Sequence record: OR670491 | Length of the DNA stretch: 64,000 nucleotides | From: Escherichia phage vB_EcoM_JNE01 | Direction: 5' to 3' (one strand) | Shown: one piece after another, positions 11,466 to 58,557 of the stretch | Layout: every line of letters starts with the position of its first letter | How positions within the stretch are numbered: position 1 is the stretch's first letter | Program-made: the position numbers and the translations under genes | Notes under the pieces: generated by a model | Database searches by the model: none | Seen by the model: only the letters and a program-made list of their open reading frames with translations | Told to the model about the DNA's origin: nothing

Positions 11466-17683
<6,218 letters not shown>

Positions 17684-24892: not shown

Positions 24893-25583
24893 TCCAGTTT
24901 TTCAATGCAAATTTTGTGATCGTGAATTCAAACGTGAAGATACCGTAAACACTCATAAATGTGTTAAGCGTGATCGTTACGACGACAGAGAGAGCCGCCC
25001 GATGAGGGAGGCTTTTCGTCTTTATATGCAATTCATGGAAATCAATAAGTTTCCTTTCAAGAAAGGAGTGGAACCTTTCATTGGTTTCATTAAGTCAAAG
25101 TACTTTAATGATTTCTATGACTTCGCAACATACTATTTAAATAATCGTGATATTTTACGTATTGATGAATTCACAGAACATTTAATGCGTACTGGTACTC
25201 CAATTACAATGTGGAGTACATACAAAGAGAAAGACAGTTGGGTACTGAGTTGTATCCGTTCAGAACTGCCAAGAGATGGTGTAGTTCGAAGCATCAACGC
25301 ATTAGTTGAGTGGGGAGAAACCGTACACAAAGAATGGAATACTTTCTTCCAGAACGTGAGTTCAGCCCGTGCAATCTCGTGGATTGAGAGTGGTAAGATC
25401 TCACCTTGGATTCTATGGTTATCTCCAAGAGAAAGTGTTAACAATTTCATGTCAAACTTCTCACATTCAGAATTAGAATATATACTTAAATACATTGACT
25501 ATAGTTACTTTGAGATTAAAACAATCAAGTACCGTAGTGATTGTGATAATATACGAGCTATGCTCAAGGAAGCAGGATTATGA
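24873..25583 (+). CDS. hypothetical protein with N-terminal C2HC-type zinc-finger-like motif
   Basis: CKFCDREFKREDTVNTHKC near the N-terminus. Confidence 0.5.
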   Translation: MAKKSSSPVFQCKFCDREFKREDTVNTHKCVKRDRYDDRESRPMREAFRLYMQFMEINKFPFKKGVEPFIGFIKSKYFNDFYDFATYYLNNRDILRIDEFTEHLMRTGTPITMWSTYKEKDSWVLSCIRSELPRDGVVRSINALVEWGETVHKEWNTFFQNVSSARAISWIESGKISPWILWLSPRESVNNFMSNFSHSELEYILKYIDYSYFEIKTIKYRSDCDNIRAMLKEAGL

Positions 25584-25909
25584 ATAATAAAAGTATATAC
25601 AATAAAATACCTGAAGGGTATGTGCCAACCCCAAAGGTTGACAAGAGTAGAGAGATTAGTTTATTAAGGCAGGGTTCTATTACTGAGATTACACTTGATG
25701 GGTCAACCTTTCAAGTATCTGATCCAGTACGAATTGAAAAGATAATTAAACTTGTTGAAAGACACGATGAACGATTGTATAATATGAATCAGGAATTATT
25801 ACAATACAAGCGTGCTTGTGCACAGTTGGAACAGAAAGTCAACAAACTTTCCATAACTGTGAATAAATTACAGGAGCAGATTAAGAATGCAGGACTCGAC
25901 AGGTTCTAA
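25580..25909 (+). CDS. hypothetical coiled-coil protein
   Basis: ATGA start overlap; heptad-like C-terminus. Confidence 0.45.
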   Translation: MNNKSIYNKIPEGYVPTPKVDKSREISLLRQGSITEITLDGSTFQVSDPVRIEKIIKLVERHDERLYNMNQELLQYKRACAQLEQKVNKLSITVNKLQEQIKNAGLDRF

Positions 25910-26525
25910 TCATTACAGAAAAGCAAGGACTGATATTGACATTGACTTCAAAGATAGTAAGTCAGTGATTGCAATGTTACCTTGCATTAGAAGTACTGAA
26001 AAAATTACCGAAGATGGATTGATTGCACACAATAGTGGTGTTCATTTTGATAACATCCCAGTTGACCCAATCTCCGGTCTAGCAAGCATTCAATACAAAG
26101 AAGCCGAAAGATTGGGATACCAAAAGGTTGATATCCTGTCACAATCGGCTTATATGTACGTGCGTGACAGAAAACATCTAAAGGAACTTATGAATCGTGA
26201 ACCAGATTGGAGTCACTTATTAGTACCGGAAATTGTTGACAATCTATCACAAATTAAAAAACACATAACGTTACTTAACGTTTGGAAACCGCAAACTATC
26301 GACCAACTAGCTATGTTTATCGCTATGATTCGACCGGGTAAACGCGAATGCCAAAGTATGAACACATGGTCTGAAGTTGAGGCTGTTATTTGGGATTACA
26401 GCACTATCGGTACAGATCAGAGTGGGAACAAGCTACGTTACTTCAAAAAGCCACATGCTTATGCATATAGCTTAATGATTGTCGTGCAACTTAATGCACT
26501 GGTTGAACATCTTACTTCTTCTTAA
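25887..26525 (+). CDS. hypothetical protein
   Basis: ORF; no motif recognised with confidence. Confidence 0.5.
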   Translation: MQDSTGSNHYRKARTDIDIDFKDSKSVIAMLPCIRSTEKITEDGLIAHNSGVHFDNIPVDPISGLASIQYKEAERLGYQKVDILSQSAYMYVRDRKHLKELMNREPDWSHLLVPEIVDNLSQIKKHITLLNVWKPQTIDQLAMFIAMIRPGKRECQSMNTWSEVEAVIWDYSTIGTDQSGNKLRYFKKPHAYAYSLMIVVQLNALVEHLTSS

Positions 26526-47319: not shown

Positions 47320-48379
<1,060 letters not shown>

Positions 48380-54880: not shown

Positions 54881-54892
54881 CATATAATAGCG

Positions 54893-54922
54893 AGAAGACC
54901 TTATGGGTCTTCTTGTTTCTTT
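54893..54922 (+). terminator. rho-independent terminator
   Basis: AGAAGACC / GGTCTTCT stem followed by TGTTTCTTT. Confidence 0.6.
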
Positions 54923-54968: not shown

Positions 54969-57362
54969 ATGGCAATTTTTACCCCTCAATGGGATATAAA
55001 AGCTGATGCACGATACATACAAGAAGGACAGGATATTCTTGTACGCCTAAGTATCAATAAAGAAAGCACAACTAATGATAGCTATACTCTAAATGCTGAT
55101 GAATACTTAGAAATGATTCTGAATATTCAATGCTTAGATAGTTCAGGTGCAGTATTTTCAGCGGAATCACATTATACTATTAATGTTGGTGATGATTTAA
55201 ACAATTTACAACCTTTATCAACTGGTATCACAGGGAACAAACTAATCAATGGTAAACATAAATGTAAGATTACCAAGACTAGTTTTGAACTATCCAGTAC
55301 AGAACAATCACAAGACGTATATTACATAAAACTACACTGTATTGATGATGGTACATTTAACAGTACTGAACAAATAAACTTCTTTTTACAAGCAGTGAAT
55401 GTAATGTATTTTGGTAATATTTCACCTAGTGGTGAATTGCGTAATACTGAAGTGACAGTTACATATGATAGTCAAGAAGTATGGGTAACACCAGGTGTAG
55501 AGATTGGTGATGACAAGCAGCTATATTGCATTGGGGATGTTGAATACGGCTCTAACAGTACTTTATTCGTTCAGGGCTTTGGTCGCCGCAGACCGTTTAT
55601 TATCGGAACTGACACCAGTGATGACATTACCCCTAGAGTATTTTTTCCTGCATATCGTTTATTGGATATGGATATTTCTGAAGTGCCATCAAGACACATC
55701 ACTAATGATTATGCTATACTGCGACCATTGCCTGCCACATGGCCTTTGAATGGTATCAATAAAGAAGTTAAAGTTAATATCGAAGACAAGCAACGTAATG
55801 TTACAAACACTGGGCTGGTCTTTAACCCGAATGGTCAATTCCTGCAAACTTTCTTGTATGAATCTGATGCATGTGACTTGTACTTTAAAGTTGAAATAGT
55901 AGATATTCTTTCTATGTACACTGATGATAGTGAACGATTTGCAATTAACCAACGTTATAAAGCCTATCAGATGTGGGTATGTCCAGAAGACATTGATGGT
56001 ATATATGCAACTTCTGATAAACCATTACCGAATCATTTGTATCAATTAAAAGATAACGTAGTTTATCCATACGTAATCGTCGGTGAATATGACCTTGGTG
56101 AAACTAAACCAGTCTTTAATAGTTCCGACTGGAATGACTTAGGGTACTATGATGCAACGTTAGGTGAAAATATTATTGGTGAAACCAAAATGTTCAGAGT
56201 ACTAATGAACGCAGAAGAAGGAAGTACGATTAACTTCATTACTGATAGTGATTTAGGTACAGTTCACGTTGGCGAATACTTCGGTCATACAAACGTTGCA
56301 CAAATTCAAACTAACAGTACTAATCAGGTGTCTTATGTACTTGATGGTGGTGATAGTATTCAGAAGTATGGATTATATCTAACTCCTGATGGTTATATCG
56401 CAGGTACAGCTTATGCTAAAAGTATGGATTTTAGTGCAAATGATGATATAAAATTAGAATTCAAAGTGAAAGCATATGACACCACTGGTGCATCAGCTAC
56501 ACAAACATTCAAGCTGTCAATCGTTCGTGGATTTGGTCAGAACTATATAAGTGCACATATTGTTCCTTCAGTATCTTTGGAACGAGATTGGTTTAAATGT
56601 ATCAGTACTGCATCGTTTACTAACCAAGCATACCATCGTCAATCGGATGATAGATATGGATTACAGAAAGTTCCTCGTATGCTATTGAAAGAAAACTTCT
56701 TAAACCAGAACTATATCTATACAACACTAGGTAATCTGAAGAAAGTTCTAAGAGATAATATTGTAAATCCTGATGGTTCAACTATCCCTGATGGGAAGTT
56801 CAAGATGGTTTTAGGTAACTACAAAATCATGTCAGCACTTGACAACCAAGGTAACTTACAGTATGATTTATTATATCGTGAAGTGTTACCAGAAGGTTCA
56901 TTAGTTTCTGTGTCTAGAAAGCCACGCACCTACACCGATATACCTAACGGTTCCTTGGGTGAGTTGTTTGGATTGAGACAGAACATATATGATGTTATTG
57001 GTGAAGATACTACAAACTTACTGAAAGACCCAACGGATCTCCAAAACCGTGGTTTGTATGTAGATGCTATATCTGGGTTAAGTGAAGAAATGCTGGATAC
57101 TGTTCCAAGATTCATGAACCACCCATACCAAGAAGATGGTATTGTTAAACGCTTTATGCCTATAATTCCGGTTGCGTACTGTGCACCTGGGAAGGCAGAA
57201 GCATTCTTTAACACTTTACTTATGAACAATGAACATGCTAACATGGTCGGTGTGGAATTTGAAATTACCTCTGTTGAGTTCGGATACTGGACTAATGACG
57301 ACAATAATTATCTACATGATACATTCTTGATATCATTACAAAACAACAACTTAGGAGGATAA
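54969..57362 (+). CDS. large late protein, probable virion structural component
   Basis: 797-aa ORF preceded by a late promoter; beta-rich; no enzymatic motif recognised. Confidence 0.5.
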   Translation: MAIFTPQWDIKADARYIQEGQDILVRLSINKESTTNDSYTLNADEYLEMILNIQCLDSSGAVFSAESHYTINVGDDLNNLQPLSTGITGNKLINGKHKCKITKTSFELSSTEQSQDVYYIKLHCIDDGTFNSTEQINFFLQAVNVMYFGNISPSGELRNTEVTVTYDSQEVWVTPGVEIGDDKQLYCIGDVEYGSNSTLFVQGFGRRRPFIIGTDTSDDITPRVFFPAYRLLDMDISEVPSRHITNDYAILRPLPATWPLNGINKEVKVNIEDKQRNVTNTGLVFNPNGQFLQTFLYESDACDLYFKVEIVDILSMYTDDSERFAINQRYKAYQMWVCPEDIDGIYATSDKPLPNHLYQLKDNVVYPYVIVGEYDLGETKPVFNSSDWNDLGYYDATLGENIIGETKMFRVLMNAEEGSTINFITDSDLGTVHVGEYFGHTNVAQIQTNSTNQVSYVLDGGDSIQKYGLYLTPDGYIAGTAYAKSMDFSANDDIKLEFKVKAYDTTGASATQTFKLSIVRGFGQNYISAHIVPSVSLERDWFKCISTASFTNQAYHRQSDDRYGLQKVPRMLLKENFLNQNYIYTTLGNLKKVLRDNIVNPDGSTIPDGKFKMVLGNYKIMSALDNQGNLQYDLLYREVLPEGSLVSVSRKPRTYTDIPNGSLGELFGLRQNIYDVIGEDTTNLLKDPTDLQNRGLYVDAISGLSEEMLDTVPRFMNHPYQEDGIVKRFMPIIPVAYCAPGKAEAFFNTLLMNNEHANMVGVEFEITSVEFGYWTNDDNNYLHDTFLISLQNNNLGG

Positions 57363-57363
57363 T

Positions 57364-57675
57364 ATGTTCAATCCATTTTTTGACCCATCAACCTTTACTG
57401 ACAAAGAACTTCAGTTGAAGATTAACGAACAATCTATGCGTATTGCATCAGCCAGAGCAGCAGGGATGGGTGATGCTATTGTATCTAACATGCAAGTAGT
57501 ACTAAATCAGTGCTATGATGAAATTGAACTACGTCAAGGTACTAAAGAGAAAAGTACCTATGATGACGCAGATCCTTGTGTGTTTGATATGGAATCGTAC
57601 TTAACTGATAACGATGAGGATAGTAAGAAGAAAAATGAAAGTTCAAGGAAACAGATTTATAAGTCCCAATGGTGA
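57364..57675 (+). CDS. hypothetical protein
   Basis: ORF starting 2 nt after the upstream stop. Confidence 0.4.
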   Translation: MFNPFFDPSTFTDKELQLKINEQSMRIASARAAGMGDAIVSNMQVVLNQCYDEIELRQGTKEKSTYDDADPCVFDMESYLTDNDEDSKKKNESSRKQIYKSQW

Positions 57676-58153
57676 TGTAAAATGTAACCTGAACTCTGTT
57701 GTGTATGCAATCAACTGTGGTGCTGATATTCAGTACTTGCAGTTGGTTGACATTGATGAACCAGAACGACAGAAATTCAATGATAACTGTAGAAAATTCG
57801 GGTTAGAGCAGCGTATGCTGGATTACGAAATTGAGCATGATAAAAATCATGAACTTTGGCGTTATGATGCGGTATACGATAAGATTAACCTACGTGATTT
57901 TTTCCTGGAAAAATGTACATCTGACGCAGCACGTGAACGTGTTATGTATGAAATTGATTTATTCGAACACTACAATATGACCAAATTATTGCGTTGTATG
58001 ATTTGGCTAGTGGACTACATGGAAGACCATGAAATCTTCTGGGGCTTAGGTCGTGGTAGTTCAGTAGCTTCATATTGTTTGTTCCTGATTGATTTGCACA
58101 TGGTTGACTCACTGAAGTATAACCTAGATGTGAATGAATTTTTGAAATGGTAG
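57635..58153 (+). CDS. hypothetical protein
   Basis: ORF in the +1 frame overlapping the previous ORF by about 41 nt. Confidence 0.45.
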   Translation: MKVQGNRFISPNGDVKCNLNSVVYAINCGADIQYLQLVDIDEPERQKFNDNCRKFGLEQRMLDYEIEHDKNHELWRYDAVYDKINLRDFFLEKCTSDAARERVMYEIDLFEHYNMTKLLRCMIWLVDYMEDHEIFWGLGRGSSVASYCLFLIDLHMVDSLKYNLDVNEFLKW

Positions 58154-58162
58154 AGAAACACG

Positions 58163-58171
58163 TGATATAAT
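58163..58171 (+). promoter_or_regulatory. early-type promoter (TGATATAAT)
   Basis: ACACGTGATATAAT upstream of 58213. Confidence 0.5.
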
Positions 58172-58212: not shown

Positions 58213-58557
58213 ATGTCTAAACATACAACTTATCGCGGTACTATTATTGATATGGATATGCTTAAGTATCAGAACCAACATCAAGTTGCATTAGGTAATG
58301 CAAACCTAAATGCTCGCGGTGATAAAATCGGTTCCGGTGGTACTGTGATTAAAACACGTGAAGAACTCATTCAAGAGAAAGAACGTGAAATGCAAATTCC
58401 TGACTTTGTTCCTGAGCACCAACTTCACAGTACTGAAATCGGTACAGACGATGGTTGGGATGATTCTAGCTTTGAAGTAGAACCATTCGAACAGGTAGAA
58501 CAAGTTTCTGAAGAGAAAAAAGCACCACGTCGTGCAAAAACTAAAGATCAGGAGTAA
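58213..58557 (+). CDS. hypothetical protein
   Basis: ORF; acidic C-terminal half. Confidence 0.45.
   Translation: MSKHTTYRGTIIDMDMLKYQNQHQVALGNANLNARGDKIGSGGTVIKTREELIQEKEREMQIPDFVPEHQLHSTEIGTDDGWDDSSFEVEPFEQVEQVSEEKKAPRRAKTKDQE

Follow-up and report, generated by a model that had tools for sequence, protein, structure and literature searches.

Two overlapping open reading frames of Escherichia phage vB_EcoM_JNE01 (sequence record OR670491), ORF1 and ORF2 (Table 1), very probably represent an ordinary overlap of two genes that are translated independently and out of frame with one another, as judged from their conservation in related phages. The first-pass annotation of the window, the whole 64,000-nucleotide stretch of DNA that was analysed, had considered three explanations for this junction: ordinary overlap, a mis-called start, or a programmed frameshift producing a fusion protein. 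The overlap is real, conserved and previously annotated, and is not a new finding. Two genes overlapping by 41 nt are annotated in the phages Turkey5, 121Q, CBB and GAP32, where the second is named 'DNA polymerase III alpha subunit'.

The segment was 98.8% identical to Escherichia phage Turkey5 and 69-82% identical to 121Q, PBECO4, GAP32, CBB and other Rak2-like jumbo phages. The Rak2-like comparison set comprised 19 sequences, drawn from Asteriusvirus, Alcyoneusvirus RaK2, Mimasvirus, Eneladusvirus, Salmonella phage Munch, Xanthomonas phage XaC1 and four IMG/VR contigs; it includes XaC1 (56% protein identity in ORF2) beside at least four named genera. Elsewhere in the window, the large terminase carries an intein-like LAGLIDADG insert.

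Table 1. Features at the ORF1/ORF2 junction and the C-terminal polymerase gene, with positions in the window
Feature	Position	Strand	Description
PolIII alpha C-terminal half (predicted)	25887..26525	+	212 aa; catalytic motif DIDIDF (in TDIDIDF) near N-terminus; ~31 kb upstream of ORF2
Shine-Dalgarno AGGAGG of ORF1	57353..57358	+	within last codons of upstream 797-aa virion-protein gene (stop 57360-57362)
ORF1	57364..57675	+	103 aa; stop TGA 57673-57675
Non-conserved in-frame ATG	57614..57616	+	mechanical 179-aa ORF call with 62-nt overlap; rejected as start
ORF2	57635..58153	+	172 aa; stop 58151-58153; +1 frame relative to ORF1
Overlap, putatively dual-coding	57635..57675	+	41 nt; ORF1 tail NESSRKQIYKSQW followed by stop; ORF2 N-terminus MKVQGNRFISPNGD
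sigma70-like promoter (consensus match only)	58142..58171	+	TTGAAA-N18-TATAAT, extended TG; 11/12; straddles ORF2 end

The 41-nt overlap and the start of ORF2

The overlap had been described in the first-pass annotation as 41-62 nt long with the second ORF in the +1 frame, and this matches both the ORF list and the sequence. The ORF2 frame is open from 57605 to 58153 and contains in-frame ATGs at 57614 and 57635, which would give overlaps of 62 and 41 nt, respectively. An ATG equivalent to that at 57635 was present in all 19 Rak2-like genomes, the ORF1 stop always lay exactly 41 nt on, and both reading frames were kept throughout (19/19), a pattern that supports the ordinary-overlap explanation. 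The positions of in-frame ATGs further upstream varied among these relatives. Seven of the 19 sequences had no in-frame start codon at all 5′ of the conserved ATG, and in three (RaK2 and the two IMG/VR contigs UViG10 and UViG11) an in-frame stop preceded it by 3-9 nt. The N-termini of distant family members aligned with the MKVQGNR of ORF2, and profile positions 1-171 of the 171 in phrog_11127 matched ORF2 residues 1-171. Because the ATG is invariant, the N-termini align, the PHROG match runs from residue 1 and the family lengths fit, the start of ORF2 was assigned to 57635 on these comparative grounds; the 62-nt overlap results from mechanical ORF calling and is artefactual. The suspicion of a mis-called start was thus borne out for the 62-nt version, whose ATG at 57614 is not conserved, but not for the 41-nt version, whose invariant ATG at 57635 falls on the N-terminus of the family.

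The length of the overlap by itself is not improbable: the stop-triplet frequency of 0.068 in the window predicts that 13 codons would remain open by chance with P ~0.40. The non-random part is its conservation. Of the 17 same-strand overlaps in a 50-kb, 65-gene stretch of Turkey5, the one of 41 nt was the longest, followed by overlaps of 23, 20, 17 and 17 nt, and gene overlaps of more than 30 nt are uncommon (PMC12548453).

Pairwise synonymous differences in ORF2 amounted to 0.21 in codons 2-14, which lie in the overlap, against 0.46 in the remainder, and no other 13-codon window of ORF2 had a synonymous diversity below 0.32. The glycine codon that creates the ORF1 stop was GGT in 17 of the 17 non-redundant sequences compared, the stop itself being UAA in XaC1 and UGA in the other Rak2-like relatives. 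The codon before this glycine always ends in T, and ORF1 is therefore closed by an invariant tryptophan; no part of the protein is better conserved than its tail. The reduced synonymous variation indicates translation of both frames, i.e. apparent dual coding, although selection on the 5′ end or initiation region of ORF2 could also contribute.

The gene pair and its family

ORF2 matched the Pfam family PF07733 (DNA_pol3_alpha) with an E-value of 9.9e-9 and 35.6 bits, the curated cut-off being 23.9 bits. The alignment of its homologues contained the invariant motif G-GRGSSV-SY-L, with G137 and G139-R-G-S-S-V144 invariant, and its C-terminus (...NEFLKW) falls just ahead of where the catalytic aspartates (DxD) of DnaE sit. 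The AlphaFold model of ORF2 had a pLDDT of 82, and its best fold matches in the PDB were all C-family polymerases, at weak E-values of at least 0.16; a sequence search of the PDB with ORF2 returned no match. The protein stands alone at 172 aa, without PHP, beta-binding or OB domains. Homologues numbered 289, the best 120 of which were 95-187 aa long. At E<=1e-30, a profile search of a 1.84-billion-protein library recovered 482 cluster representatives; lengths among the best 150 of these 482 were 157-196 aa, and in nearly all of these 150 the profile match started within ~20 residues of the N-terminus.

In group 2.2 jumbo phages, a minimal PolIII alpha is described as split between two proteins encoded far apart, an N-terminal one that binds NTP and a C-terminal one that binds Mg and the template (Iyer et al. 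2021, Viruses 13:63, PMC7824862), and the rebuilding of an active polymerase from the two halves is presented in that account as a prediction. On the evidence of its sequence, ORF2 encodes the N-terminal, NTP-binding half of such a split minimal PolIII alpha, as predicted for this family. It resembles the described protein in its length of ~172 aa, its stand-alone organization, its PF07733 match, its GRGS motif and its termination before the catalytic aspartates. The resemblance continues in a C-terminal unit with DIDIDF that is encoded far off, at 25887..26525, and in the presence of a family B polymerase system in the present phage. Nothing essential differs from the split as described there; that description of the split does not mention the small conserved partner ORF1 or the overlap. 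The 172-aa protein appears as 'truncated' in the earlier CBB genome paper (PMC5259590). The product of the putative C-terminal-half gene matched phrog_11778 ('DNA polymerase', E 2e-102), and its Turkey5 counterpart carries the annotation PolIII alpha; this gene also shares 23 nt with the gene before it (25580..25909).

ORF1 encodes an acidic, helical protein assigned to phrog_15348 (function not assigned), whose 102-position profile it matched end to end. A Pfam search with ORF1 gave no significant match. Its AF2 model was a helical hairpin with a tail (residues 89-103) of pLDDT below 50, and the overlap encodes residues 91-103. The fold neighbours of this model were generic helical hairpins only (ribosomal proteins, nsp8; E above 0.7) and were set aside as uninformative. 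The ORF1 homologues (n = 19) were 58-103 aa long. For ORF1 the anti-SD duplex energy, -10.2 kcal/mol in the window, lay mostly between -6 and -12 kcal/mol among the relatives, with four weaker values, two of which were apparent mis-calls of the ORF1 start. Of 90 loci, 83 had an ORF1 homologue no more than 1.5 kb upstream of the ORF2 homologue, and a profile built from Rak2-like ORF1 proteins alone recognised one in 55 loci outside the Rak2-like group (E<1e-3). Because of this recurrent order and these profile matches the pair is conserved, and ORF1 is, by its genomic distribution, a conserved upstream partner of the PolIII N-half.

The junction between the two genes differed markedly among lineages. 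Among the 90 loci the -41 nt overlap was confined to the Rak2-like clade. Vibrio phage 2.275.O had an overlap of -83 nt (its database start being too late), and other lineages had overlaps of -14 or -4 nt or gaps of +1, +9 or +28 to +33 nt. In 43 loci a gap of ~520-930 nt contained an intervening ORF of ~180-260 aa between the ORF1 and ORF2 homologues; this gene, of ~210 aa in many relatives, matched no Pfam family and lacks a homologue in the window. Distant ORF1 homologues were 78-80 aa long and stopped 1-33 nt before the ORF2 start, ending with ...LINIG and a stop codon at the point equivalent to ...SYLTDN in the window. From this correspondence, the Rak2-like ORF1 would therefore have gained a tail of ~20 residues across the ORF2 start. 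In some other clades the upstream gene, whichever it was, again overlapped the ORF2 start, by 11-32 nt, and this renewed overlap by whatever gene lies upstream suggests that the arrangement is favoured.

Loci with a spacer of 9-33 nt showed a different organization. In 10 of 13 distinct loci of this kind the spacer was itself a sigma70 promoter scoring at least 10/12 immediately ahead of the ORF2 ATG (11 of 13 at a score of at least 9), against a background of 0.9% of ATGs at that score. The ORF2 homologue of these sister lineages is thus preceded by a promoter arrangement of the leaderless type. An internal ORF2 promoter like that of the distant relatives was absent from every Rak2-like locus.

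Frameshifting and other explanations of the junction

The first-pass annotation had proposed a search for a slippery heptamer and a downstream structure in the overlap. No X_XXY_YYZ heptamer occurred in the zero frame anywhere in ORF1; such a heptamer is a -1 signal and is irrelevant to an ORF2 in the +1 frame. A -1 frameshift is excluded because ORF2 lies in the +1 frame, and the -1 frame contains many stops across 57588-57700. RNAalifold analysis of 15 orthologues yielded -0.49 kcal/mol, three pairs and no covariation, hence no conserved hairpin or other RNA structure downstream, and an Rfam search returned no match, frameshift elements included. A hairpin at 57707-57749 (z = -3.4 for the window sequence alone) was not conserved and was rejected as a signal. 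Transcriptional slippage was likewise rejected: A-runs reach 5 nt at most in the window and vary among the relatives.

Known recoding sites provided two points of comparison. The +1 frameshift of the prfB (RF2) type takes place at CUU UGA C and is stimulated by an SD-like element upstream. The junction resembles prfB in that the zero frame ends in the stop UGA and the continuation lies in +1, but differs in lacking a slippery P-site codon (the codon is UGG), an SD-like element 3 nt upstream and, among the matches listed, fused orthologues, and in that ORF2 has its own conserved ATG and N-terminus. The -1 frameshift of dnaX, which gives tau and gamma of the Pol III holoenzyme, uses A AAA AAG plus a hairpin. 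Here the likeness consists of the relation of ORF2 to Pol III, for which recoding is a classical expectation, and an A-rich run near 57626-57634. ORF2, in contrast, lies in +1 with the -1 frame closed, no in-frame heptamer or conserved hairpin accompanies it, and an alpha fragment belongs to a family unrelated to the clamp-loader subunit.

A programmed +1 frameshift at AAA_AAT_G (57631) or UGG_UGA (57670-57675) would produce an ORF1-ORF2 fusion of ~262-275 aa, beside or in place of the separate proteins, and would be betrayed by junction peptides such as DSKKKMKVQGNR or QIYKSQWDVK. The position of ORF2 in the +1 frame without a conserved SD would accord with this, as would the invariant position of the ORF1 stop and its preceding Trp codon in an unusually conserved overlap, although a UGA or UAA that ends ORF1 in all relatives is no different from any gene end. 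The sole codon able to re-pair in +1 was AAA_A at 57631, where tRNA-Lys could shift with the ATG as next codon, but it was missing in ~6 of the 19 relatives (XbC2, UViG14, EJP2, pEa19/BF, XaC1). At the ORF1 stop, UGG_U permits almost no +1 re-pairing and lacks an SD-like element 3 nt upstream of the kind that stimulates prfB. A rare AGG codon in the ORF1 tail was rejected as a 'hungry' shift site; it is not conserved, being AGA, AAA, GGG or AAG in relatives. Neither ORF had a fusion-length homologue among the 269 matches listed out of the 289 and 482 found, the ATG and MKVQGNR N-terminus of ORF2 are conserved where a fusion at the stop codon would not need them, and in distant relatives the two ORFs are unfused and separated by a promoter or a whole gene. 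With neither a conserved +1 site nor a conserved structure, the frameshift fusion put forward in the first-pass annotation was judged very unlikely. The ortholog pattern that, according to that annotation, would speak against a fusion was a pair of independent genes in which an internal start and ribosome-binding site are conserved. The orthologues do carry two unfused genes and a conserved internal start, which argues against it; a conserved ribosome-binding site of ORF2 was not found.

Two further explanations concern the integrity of the ORFs. That ORF2 starts downstream of the ORF1 stop, e.g. at GTG 57701, so that no true overlap would exist, is hardly credible. The GenBank record of EJP2 does start 75 nt later and that of Vibrio phage 2.275.O annotates a truncated gene, but residues 1-22 (MKVQGNR.IS..GDV...LN) are conserved in all Rak2-like genomes and align with distant N-termini, the downstream start-codon candidates are not conserved, and the PHROG match begins at residue 1. 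A single gene broken by a frameshift mutation or sequencing error would look much like this, since an indel usually leaves two ORFs side by side on one strand in neighbouring frames. Against this explanation stand the same structure and identical overlap in 19 independently sequenced genomes, the lack of any single-ORF version among the matches listed, the separated genes of distant relatives and the full-length PHROG matches of both ORFs. The broken-gene explanation is refuted by these comparative data, its probability being practically nil.

Initiation of ORF2 and origin of the overlap

No conserved Shine-Dalgarno sequence for ORF2 was found in the 19 Rak2-like sequences. Its best anti-SD pairing was -0.3 to -1.9 kcal/mol in nine of the 19 (the Mimasvirus, Eneladusvirus and XaC1 lineages), and the GAGG of the coliphage ORF2 lies ~16 nt from the ATG, too distant. 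The region round the ATG (AAGAAGAAAAAUGAAAG) was unpaired in the predicted fold and was purine/A-rich in all relatives. A consensus scan of ORF1 found no internal promoter above chance able to drive ORF2, and no terminator-like site; the sole promoter match in ORF1 (57656-57683, 9/12) was at chance level and lies downstream of the ORF2 ATG. The promoter at the end of ORF2 (Table 1) probably drives the next gene, 58213..58557, and a -35/-10 pair is annotated at the equivalent place in Yersinia phage fHe-Yen9-03.

ORF1 and ORF2 are very probably separate genes and would share one transcript, with ORF1 translated from its own strong AGGAGG and ORF2 from the ATG inside ORF1 to give the stand-alone 172-aa protein. 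The case for separate initiation at 57635 comes from conservation. The start of ORF2 most likely depends on ribosomes translating ORF1, by analogy with known overlapping genes, and coupling could operate through unfolding or through termination-reinitiation. RNA phage MS2 has its L gene in the +1 frame with respect to coat. At the coat-lysis overlaps of fr (-38 nt) and MS2 (-50 nt), the downstream gene is described as activated by upstream translation or termination (PMC12548453; Berkhout et al. 1987, as cited in that review). As described there, these overlaps resemble the present one in that the downstream start lies tens of nucleotides before the upstream stop and has weak or no ribosome signals of its own, and 41 nt falls in their range. 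They differ from it in that ORF2 has no conserved inhibitory hairpin, belongs to a DNA phage, encodes an unrelated protein and has out-of-frame starts next to the upstream stop. These ATG and GTG codons at 57669-57677, which open a mini-ORF (MVM and a stop), would be met first, under strict scanning, by ribosomes terminating at 57675; they argue against simple back-scanning and could compete with the ATG at 57635.

ORF2 might instead start independently, by SD-independent (S1-dependent) binding to the A-rich leader, the overlap being a neutral by-product of loss of the ORF1 stop. This was regarded as a serious possibility, if not a probable one. It would fit the unpaired, A-rich surroundings of the ATG, the ease with which 13 codons stay open by chance (P ~0.4), the variety of junctions in other lineages (-83, -14, -4, +1, +9 and +31 nt), and the out-of-frame starts near the ORF1 stop that would compete under scanning. 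It fits less well with the invariance of the 41-nt geometry in 19/19 genomes, including the GGT at the glycine that creates TGA or TAA, and with the overlap of 11-32 nt that the upstream gene of other clades makes with the ORF2 start.

Whether coupled or not, the overlap may have arisen when the stop codon with which ORF1 first ended disappeared in the ancestor of the Rak2-like clade; the corresponding stop of distant relatives falls at the ORF2 start or ahead of it. ORF1 would then have been extended by ~20 residues, a disordered basic tail read over the start of ORF2, and purifying selection on both frames since then would have frozen the sequence.

Dropping the overlap as a recoding candidate avoids a false lead, and the correct start of the polymerase fragment is fixed at 57635; several database records mis-annotate the start of the N-half. 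For work on the split PolIII, the N-terminal half is accompanied by a small helical partner gene (83/90 loci), and its start, without a normal Shine-Dalgarno sequence, either falls inside an upstream gene or follows a promoter at a leaderless distance. Tentatively, and with considerable doubt, ORF1 might be a third component of the split PolIII alpha, as a cofactor or assembly partner, with the overlap coupling ORF1 to the N-half and with sister lineages using leaderless mRNA from a sigma70 promoter over the ORF1 stop. If so, the same gene pair would have evolved two different ways of starting ORF2 without a Shine-Dalgarno sequence.

Promoters at the ORF1–ORF2 junction outside the Rak2-like clade

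The sequence between the homologues of ORF1, which in the window encodes a 103-aa helical protein, and of ORF2, the N-terminal half (N-half) of the split minimal PolIII alpha, was compared among the 13 distinct loci from outside the Rak2-like clade in which the two homologues are separated by a spacer of 9-33 nt. A sigma70 promoter matching at least 10 of the 12 consensus positions filled the spacer in 10 of these loci, and in 11 at a threshold of at least 9. Among all ATGs in these loci, a score of 10 was reached by only 0.9%. The promoter takes the form TTGACA-N17-TAxAAT; in spacers of about 31 nt, its -35 box contains the ORF1 stop codon. The ATG of the ORF2 homologue lies exactly 6 nt, sometimes 8 nt, past the end of the -10 hexamer. 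With this geometry, the mRNA of the PolIII N-half is predicted to be leaderless in those non-Rak2-like phages.

Features of the window and of related loci (locus coordinates are internal to each locus)
Feature	Location	Remarks
Spacer promoter, ORF1–ORF2 homologue junction	L008 2955-3003	Just 5′ of ORF2 homologue
Same junction type	L047, L023, L043, L064, L087, L022, L036, L079, L007, L078	Just 5′ of ORF2 homologue
Strong sigma70-like promoter	window 58142..58171	TTGAAA-N18-TATAAT, extended TG, 11/12
Terminator-like hairpin	window 54889..54917	13 bp stem, then T-rich tail
Stable predicted hairpin inside ORF2	window 57707..57749	32 nt past ORF1 stop; region z-score -3.4
PolIII alpha C-terminal half	window 25887..26525	212 aa, DIDIDF motif
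Gene 5′ of C-terminal half	window 25580..25909	109 aa; matches phrog_14909 'virion structural protein'
Intervening gene	L032 663-1298
Intervening gene, PA5oct EST35_0287	L102 315-1022
ORF1 homologue / PolIII N-half	L101 645-983 / 901-1416	Vibrio phage 2.275.O, MG592671
Large terminase	window 13670..16330	Single 886-aa ORF
Phage IF-3-like protein	window about 47320..47820	Correspondence with Turkey5 annotation
ClpS-like adaptor	window about 47834 onward	Correspondence with Turkey5 annotation

Predicted transcription signals and RNA structure in the window

The strong sigma70-like promoter covers the final codons and stop of ORF2 and presumably serves the next gene, at 58213; -35/-10 signals are annotated at the matching position in the record of Yersinia phage fHe-Yen9-03. 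Upstream, the terminator-like hairpin follows the gene for a topoisomerase subunit and precedes that for the 797-aa virion protein, ORF1's upstream neighbor; it suggests that a transcription unit with the 797-aa gene, ORF1 and ORF2 starts past it. The predicted hairpin inside ORF2 was not conserved in relatives.

Neighbors and annotated starts of the split polymerase genes

A gene of ~180-260 aa separates the two homologues in Pseudomonas phage PA5oct and in many relatives of marine or environmental origin (about 40 loci besides the two tabulated), and it overlaps the ORF2 homologue start by 11-32 nt. It gave no Pfam match, many copies close with the C-terminal motif F.PKV(I/L).GG(K/R), and no homologue was found in the window. 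The C-terminal half of PolIII alpha is likewise overlapped by its upstream gene, by 23 nt, as ORF2 is.

Several database records misplace the start of the N-half. The deposited start in Vibrio phage 2.275.O (locus position 1048) is too late: ATG 901 opens the homologous N-terminus, so that the gene and the ORF1 homologue overlap by 83 nt in the +1 frame. The start is 75 nt late in the EJP2 record and 21 nt early in that of Serratia phage BF, and the phage A4 record omits ORF1 altogether.

Terminase insert and IF-3 homologue

Within the large terminase ORF, about 340 aa form an insert that includes a LAGLIDADG homing-endonuclease domain (Pfam LAGLIDADG_3, residues 290-345, E 1.4e-10); the insert's intein-like ends (...THN/T) make it a probable intein. 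At this position about 1019 nt are absent from the 98.8% identical Escherichia phage Turkey5, whose terminase is annotated as two CDS with a 17-nt overlap. The IF-3 homologue could bear on how non-canonical starts are selected in this genome.
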